Below are positions 4,407 through 64,000 of a stretch of DNA of 64,000 nucleotides, piece by piece. Made by a program: the position numbers and the translations under genes. Below the pieces are notes generated by a model. The model did not search any database. It saw only the letters and a list, made by a program, of their open reading frames with translations, and had not been told where the DNA came from. This DNA is from Promethearchaeia archaeon (GTDB lineage Archaea; Asgardarchaeota; Lokiarchaeia; Sigyniarchaeales; SOKP01): the NCBI GenBank assembly GCA_029856085.1, contig JAHQWI010000184.1:2972-66971 (forward strand), written 5' to 3'. Position 1 is the first letter of the stretch. Each line of letters opens with the position of its first letter.

Positions 4407-4426
4407 CTAATTTTTAAAAATGCGAT

Positions 4427-6282: not shown

Positions 6283-6299
6283 ATCACTAGTTAAAATAG

Positions 6300-18760: not shown

Positions 18761-21700
18761 ATGCAAAATCCAGAAGAATTAGCTCAAGAAGCTTTAAAAT
18801 TTTTAGAACTAGCTCAAAAGTTTGAAGAAGAAAAAATGGCAGAAGAGGCAATCTCAAATTATCAAAAAGCAGTGGAATTTCTGAAAAAAAGCGGATATTT
18901 AATGCATAGAATTAATGAGATATATGAAAGAATAGAGGAATTGAAAGATTTCATAAAACAGAAAAAGTTATATCAACAGACTCAAATTAAGACTCAAGTA
19001 GAACAACTCCAAGACCAAGCATTTGCCTTATTAGAAGGGGCTAAAAAATTAGAATTTGATGGCTTTTTTGAAGATGCTATCCAACAATATTTATCGGCTA
19101 TTAATTTATTAAATCAATCTGGTTGGTCTGAAACTCAGTTAGAAAACTTAAGATTAAAAATAAAAGATCTTTCCGATACCTTAAAAAAGGAACAAGGTAT
19201 TCATCAAAAACAACAAAAAGAACTGACTCCTCCTGAGGAATATCTACAAAAAATAGAAGATATAAAACCTGAAGTTGTTGGTATGTTTGGGGAAACAGCA
19301 AGTAGAGAAAAAGCAGAATCTATAGCCCGATATAGATCTAGGAAGATGCAAGAGGAAGAAACACAAAATCATGCGTTTGCTCATATAGATAAAGCTAAAG
19401 AATTTGAAAAAGAAAGAAAATTCGATAAGGCAATATTGAATTATGAAAGCGCAATAGATTTATTAAATTCTATAGGGTGGGATGAACAAACTCAAAAAAT
19501 TAAGGTTATTATTGAGAAGCTTAAGAAAGACAAACAACAATTTGAAGACTTTCAACAAAAACAAGCTAGCATTGAAATAATAGGTAAAACAACAAGTGAA
19601 GAATCAATTGAAAAATCAGAAACAGAATTGGAAAAAGCTAAACTAATTGAATTTGAAGAAAAAAAGAAGAGAGAAGAAAATATTCAAGCAAGTGCGTTTA
19701 ACTTAATTAATATTGGAAAAAGATTCGAAAGGGAGAAAGATTATGAAAATGCCATTCAAAAATTTGAACAAGCCGTTGATTTATTCAAATCAATAGATTG
19801 GGATTCATATATTCAGCCTGTTATTAATTTAATAGAAGATATTAAAGCAAGGAAGGAAAGAGAACAAAGAGCAGGGCAATTAAAAGAAAAAAGACAAAAG
19901 GATATTACAATTCTTCAAAAATCTATATATAGAAAGCAAAAGGAAGAAATTTTTCAATCAGCAAAGGAATTGGATTTACGAAGACGACAATTTGAAGAAA
20001 AAAGAGAAGATGAAACAAAGAAGGAAAAACATTTTTTTACAATTTTAAGTAATGCTGATAGCATTTTACAGTCAAAAAATTATGAAGAGGCGATTAATGA
20101 ATATCAGGATGCTTTAAAACTTATAGAAGAATTGGGTCCTGGTTGGGAAACTTATGTTTCTAATATTAATAATACCATTTCAAATGTACAAAAATTGAAA
20201 AATTCACAACTAAAGAAAGAATATGAAGTTCAACAGAAACTAGAAAAAAGAGAAATTGAGGAATTGGAGTTTCAAAAACAAATTGCTAATCAATTAGATA
20301 AAGAGCGAGAGCATTTAAAACAAAAAGAAATTGTATTAAAAGATAAAGAAAAAGAAATAATATATTTAGAACAACGTAAAAATGTTGCATTTGAATCTTT
20401 AGATTCTGCTATAAATTATATAAACCAAGGGGATTATGATAATGCGATAATAGCTTACCAAAATGCAGGTAATATATTTGCTGAAATTCAATGGAAGGAT
20501 GAAATTCCTATAATAGAAAAGTCTATACTAAAAGTTGAAGAACTACGAAAAAACCAAAAAATTCTAAAACAAAAAAGAATGCAAGAAACGTTGGAAAGAC
20601 AGAAAGAAGATGAAGCATTCCAAAAACAGATTTCTCAATATTTAAAACAAGAACGTGAAAAATTAAAGAAAGGAGAAATAGAATTAAAAAAACGTGAGGA
20701 AGAACTAAAATATCGTGAAGAAAGAAGAGAAGCAGGATTTAAATTGCTTGAGCAAGCTCAAGATGAAGTAACCAAAGGAAATTTTGATAAAGCTATTGAG
20801 ATACTTCATTATACCACAAACTTCTTCGCTGAAGCTCAATGGCAAAATGAAATTAGTTTAATTCAAGATTCGATAATTGAAATTGAAAATAAAAAAAGAG
20901 AAGCAGAAATACAAGAGCAGATAAAATTACAAACAAAATTGGAAAGAGATAAGCAAGACAAAGCTTTTCAAAAGTTGGTAACATATGAGATTAAATCACG
21001 TCAAGAAAAACTAAAAAAACAAGAGATTATCGTTAGGGAACGCGAAAAAGAAATCGCATTTCGTGAGAAGAAAAAAGAAGAAGCGTTTAGTTTGCTAGAT
21101 GAAGCGAAAAAATTAGTATCTGTTAATAACTATGATGCTGTTCTTGAAATATATTATAGAGTATTAAACTTGTTTGCCCAGATTCAATGGAAAGAAGAAA
21201 TTTCAATATTAAAAGAAGCAATACAAGATATAGAGGAAAAGAGGAGGGAAGAAATACTTTTTAAACAGAAACAATTGCAAATAGCTGTTAAAAAAGAAGT
21301 AGATGATAAAGTTTTTATCGAAAAAATTAAATATCAGAGAGAAAGAGAAAAACAAGAAGCTCTTACAGATTTAGAATTTATTGAAAAGCAAAAGAAAATA
21401 TCTGCTCAGAATTTAACTAAACAACAGGAAGCTTTTATAATGATTGAAGGAGGAGAAAATCTACTTCAAGTTGAGAAATATGAGGAGGCTGCAAAAAATT
21501 ATCGGAAAGCAATAGAGATATTAAAAGAGATTGGCTGGGGAACGGATTATTTGAAATTATTAAAGGAAACAATATTCACAATACAATCTAGAAAATTAGA
21601 AAAAGAAAAAGAGACCCAAATTGAATTTGAATTAAAATTAAAACATCAAAAAGAAGAAGAACAATTTCAAAAGAAAATTTCTGGATATCTGAAAACAGAA

Positions 21701-24700
21701 CAAGAGCGAATTAAAGCAAAACAAATACAATTTCAAAAACGCGAAGAAATGTTAGATATTATTGAAACACGTAAATCAGAAGCTTTTAGTATGATGGATA
21801 AAGCAGAGAATTTATTAGACCAAGGTCAATATAACGAATCAATAGAACATTACAGGCAAGCTGAATTAAATTTAAATGAAATTGGTTTTCCAACTGATCT
21901 TATTAGAGAAACTATTCAAAAGATTCAAGAAAAAAGAAGAGAGGAAGAATTAAATAAATTTAAAGAATTAGAGATGAGTCTCAGAAAAGAACAAGAAGAT
22001 TTGGCATTTCAACAACAAATTTCTGAAAAAGTAAGACTGGAACAGGAAAAAATGAGAGCAAAGCAGGAGAAACTAAAGAAACAGGAGGAAATTAGGTTAT
22101 TAATCGAAAAGAAAGAAGAAAACGCATTTAATATATTAGAAAAAGCACAAACCAACATTGCTAAGGGAGAATTTGATAAAGCAATTGTTTTATATCAAGA
22201 AGCATCTGAGATTTTTACAGAAATTCATTGGGATGATGAAATTAAGTTAATTCAGAACTCAATCAGAGATGTTGCGAATAAAAAGCGTGAAGCTGAATTG
22301 AAAAAACAGAGAGAGTTAGAAGAAGCTTTAGAACATGAAAAACTTGAAAACGCGTTTCAAGAACAAATCGTAATAGAAATTACAAGTCAAAGAGAACAAA
22401 TAAAACAAAGAGAAATTGTCCTCAGAAAAAAAGAAAAAGAAATTGCTTATCGCGAGGAACAAAAGGAAATAGCGTTCAATTTATTAGATGAAGCTCAAGC
22501 TCTTCTCTCACAAGGAAAATATGATAACGCACTCAAATTATATAATAATGTTGCCAATATATTTGCTCAAATTCAATGGGTTGATGAGATTCCTATAATT
22601 CAAGAAGCAGTAAATGATATCAAGAAGATAAAAAGAGAAAAAGATATCATACAACAAAGAGAATTAGAAAAAGCAATAGAAGATGAAAAAGGTAATTATG
22701 CTTTTCTGGAGCAAATTAAAGTTCATAAAGAACGAGAAAAAGCAATGGCAATGAGGGAACTGGAATCAATAGAAATACAAAAAAAAGCAACAACTCATAA
22801 TTTAATAAAACAGCAAGAAGCATTTAAACAAATTGAAGAAGGGGATGAATTACTTAAACAAAATAACTTTGAAAACGCCTTAAACAAATATAATGAAGCT
22901 ATTACTATTTTAACCGAAATTGGGTGGACTGGGGCTTATTTAAAATTATTGAATGATACTATTAGTACAATCAAGAGTAGGAAAAGAGAATTAGAAGAAG
23001 CCAAAAGATTAAAACAGCAATTATCAATTAGACAACTAAAAGAAGAGGAAAAATTCCAGAAAAAGGTTTTCGAATCTATTCAGAGTGAAAAAGAGAGATT
23101 AAAAGAAAAAGAAATCCAAATTCAAAAACAAGAGGAATTACTAAAATTATTGGAAAAAAGAAAGTCAGAAGCATTTGAATTAATGCATGGTGCTGAAAAA
23201 ATTTTAAGTAAAGGTCAATATGAGCAAGCGATTGAAAAGTACCGTCAAGCAGAATTAATATTATATGAAATCGGATTTCCTACTGGAGCAGTTAAGGAAA
23301 TGATAAATAAAATTCAAGCGAAGAACAGAGAAGAAATCATTTCAAAGCAGAAAGATTTGGAGAATATGTTAAGAAAAGAAAGCGAAGAACTTCAGTTTCA
23401 GAGAAAAATCGCTGAAAGTATACAAATAAATGAAATGAAGATGAAAACTAACCAGAAAGAATTTGAAAGACAAAGGGAATATTATGAGTACATGGAGAAA
23501 AGAAAGAATGAAGCTTTTGAACTCCTTGAAGAAGCAGAAATCTATATGAACCAAGCTCAATATGATAAATCTCTTGAATATTATCGTTCTGCTGAAATTT
23601 TACTAAATGAAATAGCCTTCCCAACTGAAGCTATTCGAGAAATGATTCAAAAAGTTCAAGAAAAGAAAAAAGGACATCAACTACAGAAACAAAAAGAACT
23701 AGAGCTAAAACTTCTAAAGGAAAGGGAAGAATGGGAGTTTCAGCACAACATTACCGAACAATTTAAAGAAGAAACAGAAAGATTACAAGTAAAACAAGTA
23801 CAAATTGAGGAAATGGAAAATTTGAAAGCAAAGCTTGAAAATAGAAAACAAGATGCTTTTAAGATTTTGGATGATGCAGAGGATTCATTAAAAAGATTTG
23901 AATATGAGAAAGCAATTGAAAGTTACAGAAGAGCAGAATTAATTTTAAATGAATTGCGTTTCCCGACGGATTCGATTAAGAGTATGGTAATGAAGGTTAG
24001 ACAAGTAATAAAGCAAAAGGAAGAAATACAAGAATTACAATTTCAAAGAGAACTAGAAAAAGTACAGGAAGAAAAAGATTTACAATTGCTTATTGAAGAA
24101 AGGCAAAGACAAGAAAGAGAAAAGAAAAAAGCCCAACTATTAGCACTTCAAGAAAGAGAAAGAATCATTCAAGAACAAATGAGTATAAGAGAATCTGCTT
24201 ATTCTATGTTAGAAGAAGCAGGGAAGTATCTGAAACAATTAATCCCCGACTACAATAAAGCTATTTCTTTATATGTTCAATCTAGGAATCTTTTAGCAGA
24301 AAATATAGGATGGGATCTTGAAATAAATAATTTAAATGCCTTGATCAAGGATTTACAGCAAGAGCAGGTTAATTATCAAGAAAAAAAACGATTAGAGGAA
24401 CAAGCGCGAGTCCAAAGACAGAAAGAATATGAATTATTCCAAGAAGAAGTTAAAGCAAGAAGATTAGAACAAGAAAAGCTAAAGAGAGAACAAGAAAGGC
24501 AATATAGGGAACTAATTCTAAGCAAACGTAGAATAGATGAAATTAAAGATGAGGGATTAAAATTAATAGATGAAGGTAAAAAGTGGGGAGCATATCATGA
24601 CTTTAAGAGAGCGTATCAAAATTTTGAGATGGCAAAAGGAAAGTTCAAGGATATTGGTTGGCTTGAAGAAATAAAATATATTGAAACTGAAATAAAAAAT

Positions 24701-25123
24701 ACGAAAGCTCTTGAAGAAAGAGTTGAAGGTGAGGAATTAAAAATCCAAAATCTTCAAGATCAATTAGAGAAGCAGAGAGTATTAGAAGAAAGTCGCAGAA
24801 AAACAGAAGAAGCGCAATTGAGAGAAACTGTTGGAGACGTTAGTAATCTAGCTAATGAGGTTATTAATTTAATTGAAGAAAGGAGAAAACAACAAGAAAT
24901 AACAGATACACAGAAAAAAGAGGAGATAAAGTATGAAGCAAAAGAATTTAGACGAATGATGGGAGATATAATAAAGATAAAAGAAGAGCTAATTAAAGAA
25001 TTAGAAACAAAAGAAATTGAAAAACGAGATTTCCAAGAAAAATTACAAAGGGCTAAAGAGAGAGAAGAAATAGATAATTTAAAAAGGATAATTAAAGAAG
25101 CGGGGAAAAAGGAAAAAAAATAA
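18761..25123 (+). CDS. Giant (2120 aa) repeat protein: about 18 MIT/TPR-like three-helix units separated by K/E/Q/R-rich coiled-coil linkers
   Basis: A single uninterrupted ORF. The recurring unit is AF-x-LL-x-x-A-x(5-7)-G-x-Y(F)-D/E-x-A-I-x-x-Y-x-x-A-x-x-I/L-F/L-x-E-I-(Q/G)-W (or G-F-P-T), about every 115 aa. Confidence 0.85.
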   Translation: MQNPEELAQEALKFLELAQKFEEEKMAEEAISNYQKAVEFLKKSGYLMHRINEIYERIEELKDFIKQKKLYQQTQIKTQVEQLQDQAFALLEGAKKLEFDGFFEDAIQQYLSAINLLNQSGWSETQLENLRLKIKDLSDTLKKEQGIHQKQQKELTPPEEYLQKIEDIKPEVVGMFGETASREKAESIARYRSRKMQEEETQNHAFAHIDKAKEFEKERKFDKAILNYESAIDLLNSIGWDEQTQKIKVIIEKLKKDKQQFEDFQQKQASIEIIGKTTSEESIEKSETELEKAKLIEFEEKKKREENIQASAFNLINIGKRFEREKDYENAIQKFEQAVDLFKSIDWDSYIQPVINLIEDIKARKEREQRAGQLKEKRQKDITILQKSIYRKQKEEIFQSAKELDLRRRQFEEKREDETKKEKHFFTILSNADSILQSKNYEEAINEYQDALKLIEELGPGWETYVSNINNTISNVQKLKNSQLKKEYEVQQKLEKREIEELEFQKQIANQLDKEREHLKQKEIVLKDKEKEIIYLEQRKNVAFESLDSAINYINQGDYDNAIIAYQNAGNIFAEIQWKDEIPIIEKSILKVEELRKNQKILKQKRMQETLERQKEDEAFQKQISQYLKQEREKLKKGEIELKKREEELKYREERREAGFKLLEQAQDEVTKGNFDKAIEILHYTTNFFAEAQWQNEISLIQDSIIEIENKKREAEIQEQIKLQTKLERDKQDKAFQKLVTYEIKSRQEKLKKQEIIVREREKEIAFREKKKEEAFSLLDEAKKLVSVNNYDAVLEIYYRVLNLFAQIQWKEEISILKEAIQDIEEKRREEILFKQKQLQIAVKKEVDDKVFIEKIKYQREREKQEALTDLEFIEKQKKISAQNLTKQQEAFIMIEGGENLLQVEKYEEAAKNYRKAIEILKEIGWGTDYLKLLKETIFTIQSRKLEKEKETQIEFELKLKHQKEEEQFQKKISGYLKTEQERIKAKQIQFQKREEMLDIIETRKSEAFSMMDKAENLLDQGQYNESIEHYRQAELNLNEIGFPTDLIRETIQKIQEKRREEELNKFKELEMSLRKEQEDLAFQQQISEKVRLEQEKMRAKQEKLKKQEEIRLLIEKKEENAFNILEKAQTNIAKGEFDKAIVLYQEASEIFTEIHWDDEIKLIQNSIRDVANKKREAELKKQRELEEALEHEKLENAFQEQIVIEITSQREQIKQREIVLRKKEKEIAYREEQKEIAFNLLDEAQALLSQGKYDNALKLYNNVANIFAQIQWVDEIPIIQEAVNDIKKIKREKDIIQQRELEKAIEDEKGNYAFLEQIKVHKEREKAMAMRELESIEIQKKATTHNLIKQQEAFKQIEEGDELLKQNNFENALNKYNEAITILTEIGWTGAYLKLLNDTISTIKSRKRELEEAKRLKQQLSIRQLKEEEKFQKKVFESIQSEKERLKEKEIQIQKQEELLKLLEKRKSEAFELMHGAEKILSKGQYEQAIEKYRQAELILYEIGFPTGAVKEMINKIQAKNREEIISKQKDLENMLRKESEELQFQRKIAESIQINEMKMKTNQKEFERQREYYEYMEKRKNEAFELLEEAEIYMNQAQYDKSLEYYRSAEILLNEIAFPTEAIREMIQKVQEKKKGHQLQKQKELELKLLKEREEWEFQHNITEQFKEETERLQVKQVQIEEMENLKAKLENRKQDAFKILDDAEDSLKRFEYEKAIESYRRAELILNELRFPTDSIKSMVMKVRQVIKQKEEIQELQFQRELEKVQEEKDLQLLIEERQRQEREKKKAQLLALQERERIIQEQMSIRESAYSMLEEAGKYLKQLIPDYNKAISLYVQSRNLLAENIGWDLEINNLNALIKDLQQEQVNYQEKKRLEEQARVQRQKEYELFQEEVKARRLEQEKLKREQERQYRELILSKRRIDEIKDEGLKLIDEGKKWGAYHDFKRAYQNFEMAKGKFKDIGWLEEIKYIETEIKNTKALEERVEGEELKIQNLQDQLEKQRVLEESRRKTEEAQLRETVGDVSNLANEVINLIEERRKQQEITDTQKKEEIKYEAKEFRRMMGDIIKIKEELIKELETKEIEKRDFQEKLQRAKEREEIDNLKRIIKEAGKKEKK
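20640..23430 (+). repeat. Tandem ~1.39-kb (about 462 aa, four-unit) super-repeat inside the giant ORF
   Basis: Units 7-10 match units 11-14 one-to-one. Examples: NLTKQQEAFIMIEGGENLL..EIGWGTDYLKLLKETIFTIQSRK versus NLIKQQEAFKQIEEGDELL..EIGWTGAYLKLLNDTISTIKSRK, and EIGFPTDLIRETIQKIQEK versus EIGFPTGAVKEMINKIQAK. The offset between matching motifs is ~1386-1390 nt. Boundaries are approximate. Confidence 0.6.
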
Positions 25124-25245: not shown

Positions 25246-26874
25246 ATGAGGATATTTGGAATGACTGAAAAAATTGAAGATGTTGTTAAGGCACGTATGT
25301 ATGCTCGACAACAGCTTATTGACGGATGGGATCAAGACATCATAAATGAAGGATGTATTATAATCATCGGAGTAGGCGCGTTAAGAATATTATAATTAAT
25401 AAATTTCGCGAATGGCTGTGAAATCGCTAAAGATTTCGCTCTGATGGGTATAGGTAAATTAATATTAGTTGATCTTGATACAATTGAAACGTCTAACTTG
25501 TCTCGTCAAATGCTATTTAGACCTGGAGATGAGGGACGCCCAAAAGCAGAAGTCGCAGCTGAACGACTAAAAGAAATGAATCCGTATTTAAATATTGATT
25601 TTTACTTTGAAAAACTCCAAAAGTTGTCGATGTCAGTTTATGAAGAATCAGACGTAGTTGTCGCTGCTTTAGATAACTTTAATGCAAGATTAGATTTGAA
25701 CAAAATCTGCCTTAGAATGAAAAAACCCATGGTTGAGGGAGGTACAGTAGGTTTTGAAGGACATGTGCAAATCGTAATTCCTGAAGGTACAGGATTAAGA
25801 TATAAAAATAAAAAAAATGAAATTGAAAATTTAGTAGAAGCAAGACTTTGGGAAATAACGGATACTGAATATCCTGATTATTATAGGGCTCAAAGAGAAA
25901 TTGAATTATTAGAAGAGGAAATTGAACGAATAAAGAATGCAAGAATCTATCCTATAGTCAATAAAATAAAAAAAGAAATTGAATTGGTTTTTGATTGGAA
26001 ATATGCCCCTGAGTTTTTAGACCAAACACCATGTTATAGATGTTTAGTTCCAATTCCTCCTGCTGATGATAAATTAGTAGCTGCGTGCACTTTAAAAGGG
26101 TTACCCCGTAATAGAAATCATTGTGTTATCAAAGCTGAAGTCGAATTTGAAAAAAAATACAGTCATAAGCCAGATCTCAATTTAAATGATGAAGTTCTTA
26201 AGTTAATGGAGATTGCCCAAGTAGAATTAGAAAATCTAAGAGAAAGAGTATTTAATGAGAATGTTCCTTCAGAAGAGAGGGATTCTTTAACCAAAGAACA
26301 AATTGAAGATTGGAAAAAAAATATTAGAGAGACATTCGGACCAGATTATAAGTTTGAGGAAATGGAAAATATTTTGGGAAATAAAATAGCTGCGATACAA
26401 ACTGTTAGTTCTATTATCTCTAGTATTCAATCTCAAGAAGCGTTAAAACTTTTATTCAGAGTTAATGGAAGAAATATTGGACCCCCAATGGATCCTCCGT
26501 ATGTCAATTATAATGGTATCTATGGTCAATTTGATCACTTAAATATCCTAAAAAGAGATGATTGCCTTGCTTGCGGAAAAATAGAAGGAGAAGAAAATGT
26601 TCAAATTGTAGTTCCTTTTGATGCGAATGTAGGTTATATATTTGAAGCAATGGAAATTTCAGGACATATGTTAGATTCAGAATTATGGATGATTACGAAT
26701 CCTATGACTAAAGAAATCTATTGGAATCCATATATGCCTTCATTGAAAGACCCAGAGGTAAAACTGACTTCTCTAAAAATAAAGAGCAATGATATAGTTA
26801 CGCTGAGTCCGTTAGGAAAGGCATTAGCAGAATCAGAAATAAAAAAGTTTAATGTCGTAATCGCTTTTATGTAG
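25246..26874 (+). CDS. Ubiquitin-activating E1-like enzyme (ThiF/MoeB/UBA fold), interrupted in its GxGxxG loop by a 30-nt stop-containing insert (putative BHB intron)
   Basis: The upstream piece reads M(RIFGM)TEKIEDVVKARMYARQQLIDGWDQDIINEGCIIIIGVGA. It continues in the same frame after the insert as GCEIAKDFALMGIGKLILVDLDTIETSNLSRQMLFR. The zinc motifs PCYRC and CLACG are present. In-frame TAA at 25393-95. Confidence 0.8.
25383..25412 (+). other. Putative BHB-type intron in the E1-like gene (30 nt)
   Basis: A 4-bp helix CGCG(25377-80)/CGCG(25407-10) is flanked by 3-nt bulges UUA(25381-83) and AAU(25411-13). Cutting after the 2nd bulge nucleotide joins GCG UU|U GGC to give GVGAFGCE, in frame and with the stop removed. 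No convincing outer helix was found. Confidence 0.5.
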
Positions 26875-29952: not shown

Positions 29953-30471
29953 TCAATCTTTTGAATATTTTTCAGTCCATGATTTCGCTTTAGCTTCGAA
30001 CTTTTTCTGTGCTCTAAAATATTGCTCTCCTGCTTCGTGGTTTAATGGATCTCCCGGGTTAAAGAAAGGAGGCTCGACATGCATCATGCCTTTGAGAGCT
30101 TCAATAATATTAGTTAAAGTTTTACTTGGTGTCCACCCCGATGCCCCCGTACTTGCATCAACTTTTCCCACAAGGTCTGGATTAATTAAATCTAAACAAA
30201 TGTTAAGCTTTCCCGGTGGAATAGAACTGTCAATATTGGGATGCCACATTAGGGTAACGGCATAAGCATATGGAGGGGCGAAAGGGTAATTATCTGGAAA
30301 TTTGATTTCAAATATAAATTTGCCATCTGCATAAGGAGTTCCTTTCTTGCCTATGATAGTTAAGCGTAAGTGATCAATACTCCTACCCCATGGTTCTAAA
30401 ATGACAGTAGGTTCGTTCTTATACGTTTCGATTGCTTCAGTATAATCAGTTTCTTCCCTGATGGTAATCAC
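29953..30471 (-). CDS. Ubiquitin-conjugating E2-like enzyme (UBC fold)
   Basis: FPDNYPFAPP followed by WHPNIDSSIPPGKLNICLDLI (HPN motif plus catalytic Cys, compare HPNI..G.ICLDIL). GTG start within aaaGGTGAtt. Confidence 0.85.
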   Translation of the reverse strand: MITIREETDYTEAIETYKNEPTVILEPWGRSIDHLRLTIIGKKGTPYADGKFIFEIKFPDNYPFAPPYAYAVTLMWHPNIDSSIPPGKLNICLDLINPDLVGKVDASTGASGWTPSKTLTNIIEALKGMMHVEPPFFNPGDPLNHEAGEQYFRAQKKFEAKAKSWTEKYSKD

Positions 30472-43526: not shown

Positions 43527-44921
43527 TCATTTTTCTAAAAATTTATCGATAACATTGATCTTTTTCTTTGTTTTCTTTACATCATTTTGCAGTTTCTTTG
43601 ATCTTTTTGAATATTCTTCATCATTAATCGTTCCAGACGAATGTTTTTTGTCAATAAACTCTAGTAAGTCCTCAACAGAAGTAAGTTTTGATTCTAATCC
43701 CTCTTTTTCATCTTTTAACTCCTTTTTTGTCTTACCTTTTGTTTTGAGTTTAGGTACTGGCTTTAAGCCTGTTTCTTCAACTTCTTCTTCCATCAGAATT
43801 TCAGGTTTTGGTGGTAAAGCTGTAAGGGCTTCTTCACTTTTTTCCTTATTGCTAATAGCACTTATTTCACTAGTTATTTCTGGTAATGATGGAATCTTTT
43901 GGACACTAGGCTGAATATCTTGAGCTTTATCTTGTACTTCAGAAATATCGAGTTGCGTGGATTCAATTATATCTTTATCTGACTCTGATGCAGTCTTTAT
44001 TAATTTATCAATAGTAGTTTTAATTGTGTTTATTTGATTTTGAAAAATCTTTAATAATTCTACCAATTCACTTTTTTTAGAAATTTTCATAGAAAAATCT
44101 ATGTTGATTGTTCTTCCTTCGCTTGGAGTGGAAGTGGTTGATGTTTCAGGTTGTATTTGTATTTGAGAAGTTTCTTCAGCTGGACGAGAAATAGGTGTTG
44201 GAATATCCAGGGTTGACCTCAATTCCATACGATAATCAGAAACAAGCCATTTAAAAATATTTAATGCAAAACTAGGATGATCATAACATTGGAATCCTCC
44301 TCCAATTTTATCTCTAAATATTTCATAACTACCAATGCAACAAACCCTTCCATTTCCTATTTCGGATACACAGACTAGAGGACAAGAAAAGGGTTCTGAT
44401 GTTTCGTTCGAATCAGCTATCGAGAATGCCCCACTCCCAACAATTGAAAGAGAGCACCCTGATCTATAACATAAAGTGTCTATTTTAGACGTAATTGGAT
44501 GAGGAATGTTGAATGTCGAAATTAATGGGATATTTTCCATCCCTAAATTAACTCTTTCATCTAAAACTTGATCATTTTCAAAAATTATTCCAAATTGTTC
44601 CGATATTTCAGATAAGTTGCTCCCACGACCTCTATCACCACCTGCGTGTGATAACAATAAGAGTCCACCTCCAGAATTTTTAACCCACTTTACTATTTGT
44701 GTGATTTCATTAGCAGTAATTCTTGAAAAGTCAGGACATACGAATACTAATATATCAAAGGGCATTAGTGATTCTTCTGTTATGGGAACCTCTAAAAAAT
44801 TATAACATACAAAATCATTTGAATTTAATTGATCTCGAAGTTCAGTTAAATTATCATCAATTCGACCTCTTGGTTTATGAGCAACATCAAATGCGATGTG
44901 ATACGACATGATTAACCACAA
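43527..44921 (-). CDS. Hypothetical protein: N-terminal ~230-aa globular domain, S/T/P/E-rich linker, C-terminal coiled coil
   Basis: A 464-aa ORF. The N-terminal domain (DILVFVCPD...LLLLSHAGGDRGRGSNL) has a flavodoxin/GATase1-like alternating pattern. The family is uncertain. Confidence 0.5.
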   Translation of the reverse strand: MWLIMSYHIAFDVAHKPRGRIDDNLTELRDQLNSNDFVCYNFLEVPITEESLMPFDILVFVCPDFSRITANEITQIVKWVKNSGGGLLLLSHAGGDRGRGSNLSEISEQFGIIFENDQVLDERVNLGMENIPLISTFNIPHPITSKIDTLCYRSGCSLSIVGSGAFSIADSNETSEPFSCPLVCVSEIGNGRVCCIGSYEIFRDKIGGGFQCYDHPSFALNIFKWLVSDYRMELRSTLDIPTPISRPAEETSQIQIQPETSTTSTPSEGRTINIDFSMKISKKSELVELLKIFQNQINTIKTTIDKLIKTASESDKDIIESTQLDISEVQDKAQDIQPSVQKIPSLPEITSEISAISNKEKSEEALTALPPKPEILMEEEVEETGLKPVPKLKTKGKTKKELKDEKEGLESKLTSVEDLLEFIDKKHSSGTINDEEYSKRSKKLQNDVKKTKKKINVIDKFLEK

Positions 44922-46213: not shown

Positions 46214-46990
46214 TTAATAGAATTTTGATTCATCTGAATCAAAAACTCTTTGTAAATGCCCAAATAGAATATCTAAACCATGGTCTTCTCTTGATGAACA
46301 TGGAATTAATTCACTTGTAGATCCCATTTGGATAAATACTTCTGAAAGAAGCATTGATAATTCTCTGATCAATCCCTTTTCTCTTTCATTGGTTGAATCC
46401 TCTAACGCTTGAAAGTCGTGACTCCAATTAAGAATCATATCTATTTGATCTTCATCAATAAGATCAACTTTAGATAAGATATTTATTTGCGAGATATTCC
46501 TAAAACGAAACTGAACAGAAGCTGCTAAAAGTAAGGTTGAAATAAAACCATTAGGTCTGAGAACAAAATTTGAATCAAAGAGAAAACTCACAGATCTTTG
46601 GATATCGCCAAATCCTAATGCGCTAGCTATTAAAGGTCCAGTTTCTCGAAAAGCAAATAGCTCTAATTGCCCTGCAGTATCCACAAATATCCAATCCGGG
46701 TTATATTCATCAATTTCGTCTTTTATATCATCTAAAAAATTTACCATTAAATCAGAAGCTAAAATCATCCCACCATTCGGTCCTAAACCATATTCTTCCA
46801 TAACCTCTTCTAAAACAATATAATCCCTTACATCGATGTCAGGAACATAAGAAATAACTTTAACTCCAGGATCAAGATTCAACGTAATTGCTGAAATCTC
46901 TGGATTTCGATTTACAACATATTCCTTTAACTCACCCGTGAGAGTACTCTTACCACTTCCGGCTGTACCTATGAAATAATTTAATAATAT
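46214..46990 (-). CDS. GPN-loop GTPase (Npa3/XAB1-like); probable AUA start
   Basis: GLGPNGG GPN motif and DTAGQLELF. The ORF track starts at TTG 46882, but the frame is open to 47002 and encodes the P-loop (I)LLNYFIGTAGSGKSTLTGELKEYV. The only plausible start is ATA 46990, 8 nt after AGAGGT. Confidence 0.8.
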   Translation of the reverse strand: MLLNYFIGTAGSGKSTLTGELKEYVVNRNPEISAITLNLDPGVKVISYVPDIDVRDYIVLEEVMEEYGLGPNGGMILASDLMVNFLDDIKDEIDEYNPDWIFVDTAGQLELFAFRETGPLIASALGFGDIQRSVSFLFDSNFVLRPNGFISTLLLAASVQFRFRNISQINILSKVDLIDEDQIDMILNWSHDFQALEDSTNEREKGLIRELSMLLSEVFIQMGSTSELIPCSSREDHGLDILFGHLQRVFDSDESKFY

Positions 46991-52010: not shown

Positions 52011-52113
52011 TGGGGACTGAGGGATTTGAACCCCCGACCGACAGGTGTCCACGGAACAGCTTTTGCTTGTAGGATCTGGAGCCTGCTGTGCCACCGGGCT
52101 ACACCAAGTCCCC
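52011..52113 (-). tRNA. tRNA-Trp (CCA) with a 29-nt intron at the canonical 37/38 site
   Basis: Acceptor GGGGACU/AGUCCCC plus A73. D arm GUGU-AGCCCGGUG-GCAC. Anticodon stem GCAGG/CCUGU, loop CU-CCA-G|..|A (anticodon 52079-52077). T arm GGGGG-UUCAAAU-CCCUC. Intron at 52047-52075. No encoded CCA. Confidence 0.9.
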
Positions 52114-52232: not shown

Positions 52233-52733
52233 TCATGTTTTCGGAAAACCTTTCATACCTTCTTCAAGTTGAAGTCCGAGGGAGTTGAGTACCATCGAAA
52301 CTAAATTGTATTGACCAACAGTAAAGACCAGATCCATGAGTTGGTGCTTATCATAGGTTTTCGCAAGTTCATTCCATGTAGTATCGCTTATAAAGGAATC
52401 AACATATAATTCGTCTACAGCATGTAGTAAAAGAGCATCAAAAGGGCTCCAACCTTCAGCATCAGGACCATCTCTAATCCTTAATATCTCCTCATCACTA
52501 AGTCCCGCTCGTTTTCCTATAAAAGAATGCTGAGCCCATTCATATTCCGAATTACAGAGCCAACCAATGCGTAGAATAAGAATTTCTTTTTCTCTAAGGG
52601 GAAGTGAACATTTATATAAAATGTGATTACCAAAAACACGCCATCGGTTATATAACTTCGAATAATTGCCTAGAGTTTTCATAATGTTTGGAGCTGGAGC
52701 ATTATTATTCATCTTCGCCCATCCCTCAATCAA
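52233..52733 (-). CDS. Carboxymuconolactone decarboxylase (CMD/AhpD-like) family protein, N-terminus apparently frameshifted
   Basis: CMD-like helical core. The frame stays open upstream to 52862 and encodes the conserved PRIPPVEEADWDDD N-terminal region. The only upstream ATG (52816) is in another frame. Confidence 0.6.
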   Translation of the reverse strand: MIEGWAKMNNNAPAPNIMKTLGNYSKLYNRWRVFGNHILYKCSLPLREKEILILRIGWLCNSEYEWAQHSFIGKRAGLSDEEILRIRDGPDAEGWSPFDALLLHAVDELYVDSFISDTTWNELAKTYDKHQLMDLVFTVGQYNLVSMVLNSLGLQLEEGMKGFPKT

Positions 52734-58113: not shown

Positions 58114-58908
58114 ATGGATGTGGAATTATTAGTTATCGGTAATGAGATTTTAATTGGAAAGACACTTGATAGCAATTCAAATTGGATGGCAAAAAGGATT
58201 ACTCGATATGGTCATCAACTTAGAAGGATATCCACGGTAGGGGATGATCTGAATGTAATCTCTAGTACATTACAAGAAATTTTAAAACGAAATCCGGATT
58301 TAATTATTACTTCCGGCGGACTTGGACCAACCTTTGATGATATGACTTTAGAGGGAATAGCTATTGGTTTAAAAAGGAAATTGGAACTAAATGAACATGC
58401 TTTTAGTTCAATAAAGAAGGTTTACAAACATGCTTATGAAAGAGGAATTTTAAAACTTGAAGGGATGACAAAAGAACGAAAGAAAATGGCATTTCTTCCA
58501 CAAGGTTCTACCCCCTTGCCAAATACGGTGGGTACTGCCCCAGGAGTTAAAATTAGAGAAAAAAGCACAACAATATTTATACTTCCAGGTGTACCCGCAG
58601 AGATGAAATCAATATTTAGGAATATAATAAATCCTATTTTGAAAGAGAAGAAAGGTAAGTTTGTTGAAAAAGGATTTCTTTTCTCGGGTATTGGGGAAAG
58701 TCAGATTGCACCATATACGAGTGAGTTAGAAAATAAATATCCTCAGTTGTGGATCAAAACTCACCCCAAGATTGGGCTATCTGTTTTGGTTGAGGTCTCT
58801 ATTACTGCTTTTAATGTAGAAAATGGGGAAGAATTAATAGATAAAGCCTTAAGTGAAATTAAAGAGATTATCTTAAACCTAAAAGGAGAAATTAAAGAAA
58901 GAAACTAA
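58114..58908 (+). CDS. CinA-family / MoaB-Mog-like molybdopterin-binding domain protein
   Basis: VELLVIGNEILIGKTLDSNSNWMAKRI... and TSGGLGPTFDDMT motifs. Confidence 0.8.
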   Translation: MDVELLVIGNEILIGKTLDSNSNWMAKRITRYGHQLRRISTVGDDLNVISSTLQEILKRNPDLIITSGGLGPTFDDMTLEGIAIGLKRKLELNEHAFSSIKKVYKHAYERGILKLEGMTKERKKMAFLPQGSTPLPNTVGTAPGVKIREKSTTIFILPGVPAEMKSIFRNIINPILKEKKGKFVEKGFLFSGIGESQIAPYTSELENKYPQLWIKTHPKIGLSVLVEVSITAFNVENGEELIDKALSEIKEIILNLKGEIKERN

Positions 58909-58918
58909 TTTTAGATAT

Positions 58919-58942
58919 GAAGCCACCTTGCAGGTGGAATTC
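58919..58942 (-). terminator. Hairpin between convergent genes, downstream of the SelD-1 SECIS
   Basis: CCACC(58923-27)/GGTGG(58933-37) stem with flanking GAA/TTC pairs. The equivalent position after SelD-2 carries a different but also self-complementary sequence. Confidence 0.3.
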
Positions 58943-58989
58943 TCAATAAGTCCCCACTAAAAAGTGTTTCAACTTATCTCATTGACATC
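58941..58989 (-). promoter_or_regulatory. SECIS element (kink-turn AUGA...GA type) in the 3' UTR of SelD-1
   Basis: mRNA sense: AAUGA-G-AUAAGU-UGAAACAC-UUUUUA-GUGGGG-ACUUAU-UGAG. The AUAAGU/ACUUAU helix becomes AUAAGC/GCUUAU in the paralog (compensatory change). Confidence 0.65.
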
Positions 58990-58990
58990 T

Positions 58991-60019
58991 TTAAATTTTT
59001 GTAATTTCAATATTTTGAACATTTTCTGAAATTCTAACTAAACCAGACTGAACGTGATCTATTGTTCCCACGATCCAATTAGAAATTTTATTACTAGTAA
59101 GTGTTGTTGTGAAATCTTCTACTCTAGTAGGATCAACGGCAACAATCATGCCTCCCGCAGTTTCATGGCACATGCAATCATCAAAAGCATACCCTAACTC
59201 ATGGGATAATTCTTCAGAAAATTTTATCGAGGGCACGGTTTCTATTATTGCAGAGAGATCAGAATTCTGAAGCAATTCTGCAGTATGACCAGCTAAGCCA
59301 AATCCGGTAATATCACTTAAGGCATGAATAAATGAAAAATCATCATAGGAGTGTATTGCTTTGACAACATTCTGATTAGGAGTTGTCATAATTTTTATTG
59401 CAAGATCTATAGATTTTTGAAGTTCATCAGTAGAATATTGTTCTAACATTTCTGGAAAATCCTTAAGAATCCTATATGATGCCATAATTGCTTGTAGTCC
59501 AATGGGTTTTGTTATTACTAGTTTATCTCCTTTCTTTACTCCTTGTTTTTGAATAATTGCATCTTTATGTACATATCCAGAGGCTTCACCACCCATTAAT
59601 GGCCATTCACTATAAATAGTGTGCCCACCAACCACGTTAGAATTTATTTTTTCTTCCATAAAATACTTTATACCCTTTAGAATCCCTTCAGCTACTTTTA
59701 TTGGAGTTCTATTACTTATAGCTAGAAACACAAGCATTCCTGATATCTCCGGAACATTCATCGCAAAAATATCATTTGTAACATTACACGCAGCAATTTC
59801 ACCCTCTATTTCGGGTTCATCAATAATGGGCGTGAAAATATCAATATTTTTCACAAGAACCAAATCACTGTTAGGTATGGGTATAATAGCAGCATCTTCA
59901 ATGTCTCCCGCTAATCCCACATTGGCTAATAAATCGTTTAAATCGTTTTGTCCGAGTTTACAGCTTCATCCGTGTATGCCTACATCTTTCGTAAGCCTAT
60001 ATTCTGATTCTTTGTTCAT
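58991..60019 (-). CDS. selD: Selenophosphate synthetase (SelD), selenocysteine-containing, paralog 1
   Basis: The ORF track begins at 59920, but the frame continues through TGA 59968-59966 to ATG 60019: MNKESEYRLTKDVGIHG-U-SCKLGQNDL... This is the U/C-x-C-K active-site motif. The AIR-synthase-like body carries DAAIIP and GGHTI. GAGGTG lies upstream of the ATG. Confidence 0.85.
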
Positions 60020-60188
60020 ACACCTCAACTTTTAATGATTTCAATATATTTTAATTTAAAGTTAGTTAATAAATCAAATTCTTACTATCTATAAATATTT
60101 TCGATATTATTTATCAATTCTATCGATAAATTAATCTAATAAAATTAAAAATAAGAAGTAGAATAAAGAAGTTATTTTTATATATTCG

Positions 60189-60207
60189 ATGCCGTTTCGC
60201 AACGGAT
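60189..60207 (-). terminator. Hairpin downstream of the SelD-2 SECIS
   Basis: CCGTT(60192-96)/AACGG(60201-05) with a 4-nt loop. It is positionally equivalent to the hairpin after SelD-1. Confidence 0.3.
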
Positions 60208-60208
60208 T

Positions 60209-60257
60209 TCTCTATAAGCACCCACAATGATGTGTTTTTGCTTATTTCATCGACATC
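60209..60257 (-). promoter_or_regulatory. SECIS element (kink-turn AUGA...GA type) in the 3' UTR of SelD-2
   Basis: mRNA sense: GAUGA-A-AUAAGC-AAAAACAC-AUCAUU-GUGGGU-GCUUAU-AGAG. It is colinear with the SelD-1 element. Confidence 0.65.
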
Positions 60258-60258
60258 G

Positions 60259-61290
60259 TTAGAATTTTGTTATTTCAATATGTTCAACATCTTCAGAAAC
60301 GTGAACATATTTATGCTTATGAACATTATCGATTGACCCAATAATCCAATTTGAAACTCCAAACTTTGTAAGTCGTTCTGAAAATTCTTCTGCTTGTTTA
60401 TGATCAACAGAAATGAGCATCCCGCCTGCTGTTTCTGGCATTTCGCATGAATCAAATTTATAACCAAAATCATATGACAATTCTCTAGATAATTTAATAA
60501 TAGGCACTATATCAATAGTTGCTGAAAGTTTAGAATTTTGAAGCATCTCTTTTAAATGACCTGCTAAGCCAAATCCAGAAACGTCTGTCATTGAATGAAT
60601 GAAGTTATTCTCAGGGTAAGAATGTGTTACTTCTACTACATCTTGAAGCGGTGTAATCATTAAATTTATTGCTAAATCAATAGAAGCATCAATCTTCGAT
60701 TTAGAGTAATTCTCTATAAGAGCGGGGTTGTTTTTTTGTAGACGATATGCTGCCATAATAGCTTGATTTCCTATTGGTTTAGTAACTATAAGTTTATCTC
60801 CTAATTCAACATAGTTTTTTCGTATAATCTTGGTTTTCTCAACGAAGCCTGATGCCTCACCTCCAATCAGCGGCCATTCAGAGTATATTGTATGTCCCCC
60901 TAAGATTTTAGAATTTATCTTATTTTCCATGAAATTTTTAATTCCACTTAATATACCTTCAGCAACGTGCATTGGCATATTTTTCTTCATTCCTAAGAAA
61001 ACAAGCATTCCAGAAATGTCTAGTACATTTAATGCAAAAACATCATTAGTTACATTGGCAGCAGCAATCTCTCCCATGATTTCTGGTTCATCTAGGATTG
61101 GAGTGAAAATGTCAATATTTTTCACCATGACAAGGTCGGTATTAGGCACAGGAATTACGGCAGAATCTTCAATGTCTCCTTTTAATCCAACGTTGGATAG
61201 TAGTTTATCTAACTTTTCCGCGTCAAGTTTACAATTTCAGCCAAATAGTTTCGTTTGCAATGTCAATCGATAACTCTCTAACTCTTGCAT
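60259..61290 (-). CDS. selD: Selenophosphate synthetase (SelD), selenocysteine-containing, paralog 2
   Basis: The frame continues upstream of 61149 through TGA 61239-61237 to ATG 61290: MQELESYRLTLQTKLFG-U-NCKLDAEKL... GAGGTGA lies 3 nt before the ATG. The body is similar along its whole length to paralog 1. Confidence 0.85.
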
Positions 61291-61504
61291 CCTTCACCTC
61301 AATTTTATTATTCCTATAGCATTAGTAGATTTATTTAGAATTAACAAATATATTAATCTTTTTCATATAATTTATTCAAAAAATAAATTAAACTATTCAT
61401 GAGATAAGAAATTTCTAATAAAAATTTATAAGAAATTAATTAAATGATAAACGAAATTTATAACAGTATCATTAATCGAAAAGAAGTTAAATCTTCATAC
61501 TGCT

Positions 61505-64000
61505 TTATGGAATGAATAAATCAATATGTTTAGTTGTTTTTTTTGTGTTGTTGAATTGATCTTTATAGAATAATTCTACTTTAATTTCGTCTGCTGAAGC
61601 ATTAAAAAGGTTCTTCTTAAGTTCTTTTTGTTTGTCTATTTTCAAGACATAATTAAACTTAAAAGCAGAACCAGGTTTTAACTCACTTAATTGTAGGTAT
61701 TTTGGATAACTTTCCTTTCTCTTAATGTTGACATAGGTCGGGACTTTTAAAGAAATTTGGAAATCTTTAAATTCCAAACTTGAAGGGTTAGTTAGTTTAA
61801 AATTCAAGTAGATTTCGTTGCCAATTGTCTTTATGTTTTTGAAAAAGAAGATATCTTTAGAATCTGTAATAAAAGACTCAATTTGCTCGAAAGATAATGT
61901 TTCATTTATGATTTTCGCATTAAGCTTATTCCTGTTAATGAATTTAAGAATAGTTTCTTTTAATTGCTCTGTGTTAACATTTAGAAATTTAGAGAGTAAA
62001 TCCAATTTTATGGGGTTGCTAATTTTGGAGTAATACTTAATCTGACTTAGATGAAGTTTATCTTCTCCTTTTCGTATGAAATTTTTAAGCCGATTTATCA
62101 GTAATTCTTTTGAGGTGTTAAATTTGTCGATATATGGTCTCACATATAAGTTAAACACATTATTGTCTTCCAGTAATTTCTCTTTACCAAGAATGTTTTC
62201 AATTTGTTTATCAGTTTCTTCTATATAATTCTGTATTTGTCTTGTATTCATTTCAATTAACTTTTTTCCATCACTAAACTCATTAGTCTTTATTAAAAAT
62301 TCTAATTTTGGAGTTAGTGTTTCAAAATTATCATTTAACTTTTTAATTCCTTCGATTCTCTCTGTAATAATAGATTGGATATGTCCTTGAAGGAGTTGAA
62401 ATCTAAGTTCATTATCAATCCCATTTATCTCTTTATTATCAGAAATTTCCCCTATGACCCTACTTTGTATCATATAGTCGATTAAATCATCTTTTATCGT
62501 CTTAAATTGTCTATCTAAATCAATTAAATATTCCTGAATTTCAATTTTTATTGAAACCCATTTTCTTAACAGATCTTCGAAGATTTCATCAAACTCTACA
62601 TTATTTATTAATAGTTCTCTTATTTCTCCATCTAACGTGAATAATTTTTTTCTTATTTGGGTTATATAAGTGAATGTTTCATTTTCACCATTGCTAACAT
62701 TCATCTCAAGTTCATTTTCTTTTATGTAATCAAATTCAGCTTTAAGGATATTTATGCGATTATCTAATAGCTTGATTTCTTGATGTAAATCAGAGACAAA
62801 CTCTTGCTTTTTTTCTTCGCATATTTCAGAGATAAAACTTTTTATAATACTTAATTCTTCAATTATCTGGACTTTAGTATCTTCCCAATCTTCAATTAAT
62901 CCAAAAGCTAATCTTTTATAATCAAATTTATTAATTACGTTATCAAATTTTTTGATTTTTCTAAGAATCTTATTGTATTTTCTATTTAATTGAACTTCTG
63001 TATTGTTAAATTTAAAATTTTCAATATAGGAATTTAGTTTTTCTCTGAATTGCGCAGGAATTTTTCGAAATCTAACTATTTTTTTATGAAATAATGCTAA
63101 TTCATAATTTATGCGTTCTATTGTAGAATCGATTTTTTTAAAGTTGGTGTTAATATTTTCTAATGTAAAAAAGATCTCTTCCTTCACTTCTGGATCTTTT
63201 TCAATTTGTAAGGATTTGTTTAATTCAATCGTAATCCAAACAGCTATTTTATGGCTTTTTAAAATGAAACATATATGGTTTAAAAAATTGATTGTTTGTT
63301 TTCTTTCTCTCCAAAAACGCGACTCTAGTTGATATAATATTCTGGTTATTTCGTTCTCAATTTCAATTTGATATTCTTCAAATAGCCGCTTAAAAACCAG
63401 GGCAATTCCTTCTCTAATGTTTTCAGAAGGGTTTTCTAATTCTTCGAACAAATAAGGAAATATTTCGGTAATATTTTTTTGACAGAGCTGATATAACGCA
63501 TTTATTAATGAATTTCTATAATAAGAATGTCCTGTTTCTGACATTGAATTTAATAAATTAGCCCATATCTGGTCAAAGTTATTTTCTGCTATATTTACGA
63601 GAGCTTCTATTACTTTTGATTGAATGCGATAATCTTTCTCTTTTAAGATGTTTATTAATTTTGGAATAATTGAGATTATTTCAGAAGACTTTTCTTTACC
63701 TATTTCGCCAAATAACCAAATAATTAATTCTTTGACTCTATTTGCTTCGTTGTAAAGAAGGTTGAGTAGAAGATAGAATAATTTTTCTTTAGATAGGAAG
63801 TACGTACCATGGATCTTTAGGAGTTCAGCAGCAGCGTGCGCAACATCATCATCTTCATCTCTGAGATTTATGATTACCATTGATAATAATGGTTCTAAAT
63901 CTCTTATTTTAGTATAATCTTGATTTAATATCTTTTGTATCGTTTTGATTACATTGAGTTTTACTTTCCAATCATTATCCATCAATTTTTCCGTGTATTC
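61505..64000 (-). CDS. HEAT/ARM-repeat N-terminal domain protein with a long helical/coiled-coil body (5' end probably beyond the window)
   Basis: HEAT-like units (DWKVKLNVIKTIQKI..., DEDDDVAHAAAELL...). The frame remains open from 63985 to the window edge. Confidence 0.55.
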   Translation of the reverse strand, partial: EYTEKLMDNDWKVKLNVIKTIQKILNQDYTKIRDLEPLLSMVIINLRDEDDDVAHAAAELLKIHGTYFLSKEKLFYLLLNLLYNEANRVKELIIWLFGEIGKEKSSEIISIIPKLINILKEKDYRIQSKVIEALVNIAENNFDQIWANLLNSMSETGHSYYRNSLINALYQLCQKNITEIFPYLFEELENPSENIREGIALVFKRLFEEYQIEIENEITRILYQLESRFWRERKQTINFLNHICFILKSHKIAVWITIELNKSLQIEKDPEVKEEIFFTLENINTNFKKIDSTIERINYELALFHKKIVRFRKIPAQFREKLNSYIENFKFNNTEVQLNRKYNKILRKIKKFDNVINKFDYKRLAFGLIEDWEDTKVQIIEELSIIKSFISEICEEKKQEFVSDLHQEIKLLDNRINILKAEFDYIKENELEMNVSNGENETFTYITQIRKKLFTLDGEIRELLINNVEFDEIFEDLLRKWVSIKIEIQEYLIDLDRQFKTIKDDLIDYMIQSRVIGEISDNKEINGIDNELRFQLLQGHIQSIITERIEGIKKLNDNFETLTPKLEFLIKTNEFSDGKKLIEMNTRQIQNYIEETDKQIENILGKEKLLEDNNVFNLYVRPYIDKFNTSKELLINRLKNFIRKGEDKLHLSQIKYYSKISNPIKLDLLSKFLNVNTEQLKETILKFINRNKLNAKIINETLSFEQIESFITDSKDIFFFKNIKTIGNEIYLNFKLTNPSSLEFKDFQISLKVPTYVNIKRKESYPKYLQLSELKPGSAFKFNYVLKIDKQKELKKNLFNASADEIKVELFYKDQFNNTKKTTKHIDLFIP

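Follow-up and report, generated by a model that had tools for sequence, protein, structure and literature searches.

A 64,000-nucleotide stretch of DNA from a Promethearchaeia archaeon (contig JAHQWI010000184.1; 'the window' below means this whole stretch) very probably carries two old tandem paralogs of selD, the gene for selenophosphate synthetase, each with its own Shine-Dalgarno sequence, an in-frame UGA recoded as selenocysteine (Sec), and a type II selenocysteine insertion sequence (SECIS) element behind its stop codon. This reading is drawn from the nucleotide sequence and its comparison with relatives. Both genes lie on the minus strand, and their products are 60% identical in amino acids by pairwise alignment. 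The window is a clean and complete example, with both genes, both SECIS elements, and promoter-like and terminator-like signals.

Gene models of the tandem pair

The features of the two genes are as follows.

60259-61290, minus strand: selD, upstream-type paralog; 343 codons including Sec18; N-terminus MQELESYRLTLQTKLFG-U-NCKL; both AIRS domains
61290-61288 and 60261-60259, minus strand: ATG and stop codon of the upstream paralog
61237-61239, minus strand: in-frame TGA (Sec18) of the upstream paralog, aligned with Cys17 of E. coli SelD
61294-61300, minus strand: Shine-Dalgarno sequence GAGGTGA of the upstream paralog, 3 nt 5' of the ATG, kept in nearly all orthologues
58991-60019, minus strand: selD, downstream-type paralog; 342 codons including Sec18; N-terminus MNKESEYRLTKDVGIHG-U-SCKLG
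60019-60017 and 58993-58991, minus strand: ATG and stop codon of the downstream paralog
59966-59968, minus strand: in-frame TGA (Sec18) of the downstream paralog, tryptophan (W) in database homologues called with genetic code 4
60021-60026, minus strand: Shine-Dalgarno sequence GAGGTG of the downstream paralog, 1 nt 5' of the ATG

A mechanical list of open reading frames (ORFs) contains only N-terminally short forms of the two genes (58991-59920 and 60259-61149). Extending either frame upstream crosses exactly one TGA before reaching an ATG behind GAGGTG(A), and the active-site segments then read ...LFG-U-NCKL in the upstream and ...IHG-U-SCKL in the downstream paralog, with the TGA as codon 18 in both. 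A preliminary description of this DNA had given the same TGA coordinates, a single TGA per frame, and an ATG with GAGGTG(A), all of which hold on re-reading the sequence. It had also assigned the pair a span of 58941-61290, whose lower bound falls inside an element of the 3' untranslated region (3' UTR), while 58991 is the last coding position. Both genes are routinely called either N-terminally truncated or with W at the Sec position, and correct models need the Sec codon together with the 3'-UTR element.

Conservation of the in-frame TGA

A scan of one genome per species, with genes located by parsing tblastn output, yielded 80 related loci, all from metagenome-assembled genomes (MAGs) of Promethearchaeota (Lokiarchaeia-type). 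In these 80 other genomes, TGA occupies the homologous codon in all 81 downstream-type genes and in 44 of the 47 upstream-type genes, that is, in 125 of 128 together, a recurrence that is not due to chance. The ATG and GAGGTGA upstream of the TGA are conserved in the homologues, and the N-terminal peptides are nearly invariant (MQELESYRLTLQTKLFG-U-NCKL in the upstream type, M..EYRLT..VKI[HFY]G-U-SCKLG in the downstream type). Over the 12 codons 5' of the TGA, entropies at codon positions 1/2/3 are 0.33/0.12/0.97 and 0.55/0.33/1.27 in the two sets, reflecting mostly third-position variation, and the codon-position pattern is the same before the TGA as after it. In one related locus (L002:2133-2621), Ns hide the beginning of the upstream-type gene, precisely over its Sec region.

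The closest full-length database proteins have W in place of Sec, since their gene callers resorted to genetic code 4 when contigs were short. These W-carrying homologues thus indicate that the TGA is present in many independent assemblies.

Family membership and active site

Both proteins match the NCBIfam SelD model TIGR00476 (180 bits for the upstream and 182 bits for the downstream paralog; cutoff 125), as well as Pfam PF00586 and PF02769, the N- and C-terminal AIRS domains. NCBIfam NF010705 scores best of all models, with 255 and 276 bits, both slightly short of its cutoff (291). All PDB matches of the two proteins are SelD or selenophosphate synthetase (SPS) structures. With numbering taken from the alignment, G17-U18-x-C20-K21 aligns with G16-C17-G18-C19-K20 of E. 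coli SelD (3u0o), whereas the human SPS1 residue in the column of U18 is T29. The motifs eDsAV, nIDiFTP, tnDvFA and mtDvsGFG are found in both paralogs, and their aspartates are invariant in the homologue alignment. The ATP- and metal-binding aspartates of E. coli SelD are D51, D68, D91 and D227.

The SPS1-type replacement of the catalytic Sec/Cys is absent from both paralogs, and the TGA is kept in nearly all of the relatives surveyed above. Because the Sec, the Lys and the four metal/ATP-binding Asp are all retained, both copies are probably active enzymes.

A SECIS element behind each gene

An element of roughly 72 nt begins 1 nt after the stop codon of each gene.

60187-60258, minus strand: SECIS of the upstream paralog; covariance model score 95.7 bits, E 3e-21
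Parts of the upstream SECIS, minus strand: P1 CGAUG 60258-60254 with CAUCG 60191-60187; AUGA 60250-60247; GA 60212-60211; P4 60205-60192
58919-58989, minus strand: SECIS of the downstream paralog; covariance model score 89.9 bits, E 8e-20
Parts of the downstream SECIS, minus strand: P1 GAUG 58989-58986 with CUUC 58922-58919; AUGA 58982-58979; GA 58944-58943; P4 58937-58923

The proposed fold consists of a basal helix P1 (GAUG/CAUC), an AUGA/GA core, a 6-bp P2, an A bulge, a P3 ministem and a GC-rich P4. Beyond the core, the upstream element runs through P2, an AAA bulge and the P3 ministem, and its single-sequence fold has a z-score of -3.5. The P4 hairpin is conserved; placed after the core GA and ahead of the 3' strand of P1, it creates a three-way junction, and all five of its pairs covary.

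Conservation, covariation and the covariance model itself are based on 116 distinct aligned elements. Invariant bases are G and A in AUGA, A in GA, and two As in the AAA bulge, and the other core bases are at least 90% conserved. Overall, 94.5% of cells are paired and double changes occur in 17 of the 20 pairs, a level reached by none of 500 shuffles and approached by no slid register. For individual helices, P1 is 94% paired with double changes in four of its five pairs, and the helix 3 ministem is 88% paired with double changes in three of four. RNAalifold independently predicts P1, P2 and P4. When searched against the window, the covariance model matches only the two selD 3' ends (next best hit, 14.3 bits), and across 0.87 Mb of related loci it finds 118 sites, all of which are selD 3' ends.

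The core, A bulge, ministem and lower stem of the predicted element are typical of the eukaryote-like type II SECIS known from Asgard selD. The element would be SECIS-like in function, yet outside the Rfam family as modelled. A covariation-supported structure with an extra hairpin also makes Sec recoding in Asgard archaea amenable to specific reporter assays.

Seven downstream-type genes, a minority, carry a type I-like lokiSECIS instead, in which AUGA and GA flank a 9-bp stem with an 11-nt A-rich loop that has AG at its end. These elements keep the architecture of basal helix and 3' hairpin, and lie at the following positions of related loci.

L017:7021-7100
L035:7027-7106
L046:7057-7136
L068:6015-6094
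L070:7015-7094
L075:7030-7109
L076:7018-7097

In another locus (L067:3433-3515), a SECIS match lies 5' of a downstream-type gene, though tblastn gave no upstream-type gene there. Two further searches for such elements were set aside. A loose AUGA...AAA...GA pattern gives 92 matches against 98 expected, which is chance level and uninformative, and a scan for type I lokiSECIS gives one match, inside a HEAT-repeat gene (62301-62334), that we judged to be due to chance.

Putative transcription signals

Three conserved blocks resembling archaeal transcription signals flank the genes; those resembling promoters combine a B recognition element (BRE) with a TATA box.

61348-61364, minus strand: BRE/TATA-like block GAAAAAGATTAATATAT, putative promoter of the upstream paralog, about 60-75 nt 5' of the ATG
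60138-60155, minus strand: T-rich tract CTTATTTTTAATTTTATT after the upstream SECIS, likely an archaeal oligo-T terminator
60085-60129, minus strand: conserved intergenic block with TTATCGATAG at 60129-60120 and ATCGAAAATATTTATAGATAG at 60105-60085, putative promoter of the downstream paralog plus a repeated TATCGA motif 5' of it

Across 43 aligned upstream regions, the consensus in front of the upstream-type genes is GAAAA.ATTAATATAT, and the intergenic alignment gives GATA.ATAA.ATCGAAAA..TT.AT..ATA. Both genes have a TATCGA motif followed by a CGAAAA-(N)TTAATATA BRE/TATA-like block (GAAAA-ATTAATATA type), and T-tracts occur at the same place in orthologous loci. Given a separate BRE/TATA-like block for each gene and a T-tract behind the first SECIS, the pair probably forms two transcription units with related promoters. 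The similarity of the blocks suggests either a promoter copied along with its gene or a regulator shared by the two genes.

The stop of a convergent MoCF_biosynth (CinA/MoaB-like) gene (58114-58908, plus strand) and the 3' end of the downstream SECIS lie 10 nt apart. The C-terminal coding sequence of this gene is conserved beside the SECIS in many related loci, and the transcript 3' ends of the two genes therefore probably overlap.

Proposed decoding of the UGA codons

By analogy with established archaeal and eukaryotic Sec decoding, the AUGA/GA core of the 3'-UTR SECIS would form a kink-turn and the element would recruit the archaeal Sec-specific elongation factor (EFSec), carrying Sec-tRNASec, to the ribosome at codon 18, ~980 nt upstream. 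Recruitment could be direct or occur via a kink-turn-binding adaptor, and the UGA would then be read as Sec and not as a stop. The selenium donor needed for the Sec of SelD is itself the product of SelD, which would place the pair in a positive feedback loop.

Four lines of evidence favour readthrough: the W-carrying homologues, the TGA conserved across the related loci, the coding periodicity in front of it, and the use of TGA as an ordinary stop elsewhere in the window. The predicted decoding of UGA as Sec is supported for both genes. Translation could instead begin at the GTG codons 3' of the TGAs (59920 and 61149), with the TGAs serving as stops of short upstream ORFs. The shorter ORFs do appear in the mechanical ORF list and many database entries are annotated as truncated, but such proteins would be without the Sec/Cys-x-Cys-Lys loop that defines SelD catalysis. 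Furthermore, the 17 upstream codons, the Shine-Dalgarno sequence and the ATG are conserved with coding periodicity in more than 120 genes, and every gene has a SECIS behind it, making a downstream start highly improbable. It is harder still to credit that TGA is globally reassigned, for example to Trp or Gly, and that the proteins are not selenoproteins. Although the W at the Sec position in the homologue translations of some gene callers would agree with reassignment, TGA is the ordinary stop of 9 of the 51 window ORFs, including genes whose Pfam match extends to the end of the domain model, which argues against any global change of its meaning. The codon in question, moreover, aligns with the catalytic Cys/Sec, and a dedicated SECIS is present.

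Several observations weigh against reading the two genes as a Sec-decoding pair. No gene for tRNASec, EFSec, PSTK or SepSecS was found within the 64-kb window with ARAGORN, Rfam and Pfam; published Lokiarchaeial genomes carry the full set of Sec machinery according to two reports (PMC4989117, PMC11227280). SBP2 was not detected in Lokiarchaeota, as stated in the earlier of these (PMC4989117). The Rfam SECIS models match neither 58700-61500 at E<=10 nor any part of the window at the gathering threshold, a miss that agrees with the failure of standard SECIS tools on Lokiarchaeota described in that same report (PMC4989117). The basal helix of the downstream SECIS contains one U.U mismatch. Finally, the putative promoter and terminator roles are read from sequence conservation.

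On balance, the proposals of the preliminary description regarding recoding are borne out. That the listed ORFs are N-terminally truncated, with true starts 5' of the TGA, is upheld by the comparative evidence and the SECIS behind each gene; that the TGA marks the catalytic Sec/Cys site agrees with the alignment to E. coli SelD and human SPS1, which places U18 there; and that both tandem paralogs are selenoproteins is the reading favoured by the TGA conserved in relatives, the coding periodicity and the presence of one SECIS per gene.

Age and order of the duplication

An upstream-type gene precedes a downstream-type gene on the same strand in 47 of the 80 related loci, with spacers of 213 nt to 1.9 kb, and at least 15 related loci with the full 6-kb upstream flank have only the downstream-type gene. 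The pair had been called unusual, which is fair for prokaryotes generally but not for this lineage, where it is common, being found in those 47 genomes, and where multi-copy selD has been published (PMC11227280).

Neighbour-joining groups the 44 upstream-type sequences into a single clade; the remaining ingroup consists of the 77 downstream-type sequences. Within the types, identities are 78% and 73%, compared with 61% between them. Close homologues all come from Promethearchaeota MAGs, and all other SelD representatives, one Thorarchaeota and one Methanospirillum protein among them, are at most 43% identical to either type. From the tree and the identities, the duplication is older than the radiation of these genomes and specific to the lineage.

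The two types differ at 11 clade-specific positions. The residue after Sec is N19 in the upstream and S19 in the downstream type, and at position 284 (M versus C) the upstream type reads C-E-M-P-ETAGG versus C-x-C-H-ETAGG in the downstream type. Loss of Sec or of catalytic residues is seen among the clade-specific changes of neither type. An ordered, old tandem pair, rather than sporadic duplicates, narrows the hypotheses on why two copies are retained.

Retention of two copies

The two copies are most likely kept as co-regulated or condition-specific isozymes, which we rank ahead of biochemical sub-functionalisation and, after it, heterodimer formation. In the case of sub-functionalisation, the paralogs would use different selenium substrates or delivery partners, or one of them would have a role other than Sec synthesis, by analogy with SEPHS1/SEPHS2. 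The distinctness that the clades have maintained and their 11 specific positions, N19 versus S19 and position 284 among them, are consistent with this, and a 'new function' is raised as a possibility in PMC11227280. However, the Sec, Cys20, Lys21 and Asp ligands are kept in both types, whereas SPS1-type paralogs lose the Sec/Cys, and the markers ybbB, yqeB and yqeC were not found in Lokiarchaeota according to PMC4989117. The missing ybbB makes a selenouridine role, in particular, a weak proposition. Sub-functionalisation is a tentative and fairly unlikely alternative. That the products form an obligate or preferred heterodimer is a less probable one, and we consider it quite unlikely. It would explain the adjacency and apparent co-regulation of the genes, SelD is a dimer, the tandem order is kept across more than half of the genomes, and the TATCGA...CGAAAA-TTAATATA promoter motifs before both genes are similar; the loci with a complete 6-kb upstream flank that hold a downstream type, at least 15 in number, nevertheless do so without an adjacent partner.

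Co-regulated or condition-specific isozymes thus remain the preferred explanation. A broader proposal, which we regard as unlikely, is that the genes are not just redundant copies but constitute an ancient fixed two-gene module, functionally diverged or heterodimeric, and that the SECIS is a kink-turn three-way junction of basal helix, K-turn arm and conserved 3' hairpin, an architecture for which eukaryotic and archaeal SECIS elements offer no described precedent. If this were true, the eukaryote-like SECIS would have begun as a junction element, and the ancestral Asgard archaeon would already have had an SPS paralog pair, foreshadowing the SEPHS1/SEPHS2 split.

A 31-nt insertion at the Sec codon in three relatives

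Three upstream-type genes, one of them (L082) on a metagenome contig, contain a 31-nt insertion one base after the UGA; these are the only cases found. All have the form GGY UGA A / 31 nt / AC UGU AAR.

L013:4480-4513, related locus: 31-nt insertion
L014:4278-4311, related locus: 31-nt insertion
L082:4753-4786, related locus: 31-nt insertion

The insertion breaks the frame, and both the 325-codon downstream ORF, which is under purifying selection, and the SECIS are intact. At the same offset, each of the three can form a 4-bp helix between G[Y]UG and CA[R][Y], which shows one compensatory change and has a 3-nt bulge at either end, the two bulges being on opposite strands. This bulge-helix-bulge (BHB) geometry was seen only in an explicit geometric scan; minimum-free-energy z-scores are non-significant and the outer helix is weak. 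Archaeal BHB introns are cleaved between the second and third bulge residues (PMC2738675), and Asgard archaea have a broad-specificity (alpha-beta)2 splicing endonuclease (PMC5829648). Cleavage by this rule would restore UGA-AAC-UGU, that is, G-U-N-C-K. The insertion is a candidate archaeal BHB mRNA intron at the Sec codon. Translational bypass was rejected, as the insertion in L014 is without matching take-off and landing codons (UAU versus UGU).

Other features of the window

The window has a GC content of ~30%, and its gene content fits an Asgard genome. Pfam annotation covered about 50 window ORFs, none of which is Sec machinery. Eukaryote-signature genes comprise Arf/Roc/Ras-family GTPases, a ThiF/E1-like protein, a UQ_con E2, a 2120-residue protein with MIT and TPR domains, an IFT52 GIFT-domain protein and a GPN-loop GTPase.

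11369-13207 (plus), 15803-16327 (minus), 25444-26874 (plus), 29953-30471 (minus), 18761-25123 (plus), 43527-44921 (minus) and 46214-46882 (minus): eukaryote-signature gene set

A phosphonate-biosynthesis-like cluster (2697-7436, plus strand) encodes a phosphoenolpyruvate mutase fused to a nucleoside triphosphate (NTP)-transferase domain, an Fe-alcohol dehydrogenase, a nucleotidyl transferase and a thiamine pyrophosphate-dependent decarboxylase, and a major facilitator superfamily transporter gene (1192-2505) lies just upstream of it. ARAGORN reports no tRNA, and hence no tRNASec, in the window. A tRNA gene that it missed (52011-52113, minus strand) is the one tRNA found by Rfam, at 49 bits; it is otherwise ordinary, has an insertion of ~30 nt in the anticodon loop (an intron) and is not tRNASec. 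A CMD/AhpD-like ORF (52233-52733) was considered as a hidden Sec gene and rejected, its upstream frame being full of stops.

Comparison with known systems

The pair is real but known in kind, since Sec-containing SelD with a type II SECIS and multi-copy selD have both been published. Mariotti et al. (2016; PMC4989117) described Lokiarchaeota as having a Sec-containing SPS whose lokiSECIS is distinct and type II-like. That SPS belongs to the same family as the proteins here and has a single in-frame UGA at the ancestral Sec position, and its lokiSECIS likewise lies near the stop codon, has AUGA/GA, an A-rich bulge and an extra apical stem, and escapes standard tools. In contrast to the present pair, that study found one SPS in each genome, with no more than a fragment of it in the Loki assembly; its main text makes no mention of a 3' hairpin or three-way junction. 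In 2024, 51 Loki- and Thorarchaeia organisms were reported to have at least two Sec-containing selD genes, a situation rare in other prokaryotes (Huang, Xiao & Zhang, PMC11227280). According to the same paper, Asgard selD mostly has type II elements with a selD-specific lower stem G[A/U]G_C[U/A]C, which P1 (GAUG/CAUC) matches here. Adjacency, two old clades in fixed order, and a hairpin between the GA core and the lower stem are not stated in its main text (PMC11227280). Set against the main texts of PMC4989117 and PMC11227280, then, the tandem order, the two clades, the three-way-junction SECIS and the 31-nt insertion appear not to have been reported.

Outside the Asgard archaea, the Sec-containing SelD of Methanococcales and Methanopyrus is also archaeal and recoded from the 3' UTR, but its SECIS is of the GAA_A bulge type and the gene is single-copy. 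The eukaryotic SEPHS1/SEPHS2 (SPS1/SPS2) pair is similar as a long-retained duplication of selenophosphate synthetase (Mariotti et al. 2015, cited in PMC4989117). There, the SPS1-type copy has its Sec/Cys replaced (T29 in humans, at the position of U18), whereas here both copies keep Sec and each its own SECIS.

The eukaryotic type II SECIS (e.g., SEPHS2; RF00031) resembles the elements described here in its 3'-UTR location, its AUGA_GA non-Watson-Crick quartet flanking helix II, and its unpaired As 5' of the ministem. The present elements differ in their short helix II of 6 bp, in their start 1 nt behind the stop codon, and in a conserved GC hairpin that separates core and basal helix on the 3' side; they have no Rfam match, and the lineage has no known SBP2. 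Asgard archaea and eukaryotes have a single selenoprotein in common, SelD, and the eukaryotic SECIS has been proposed to descend from its type II element (PMC11227280).

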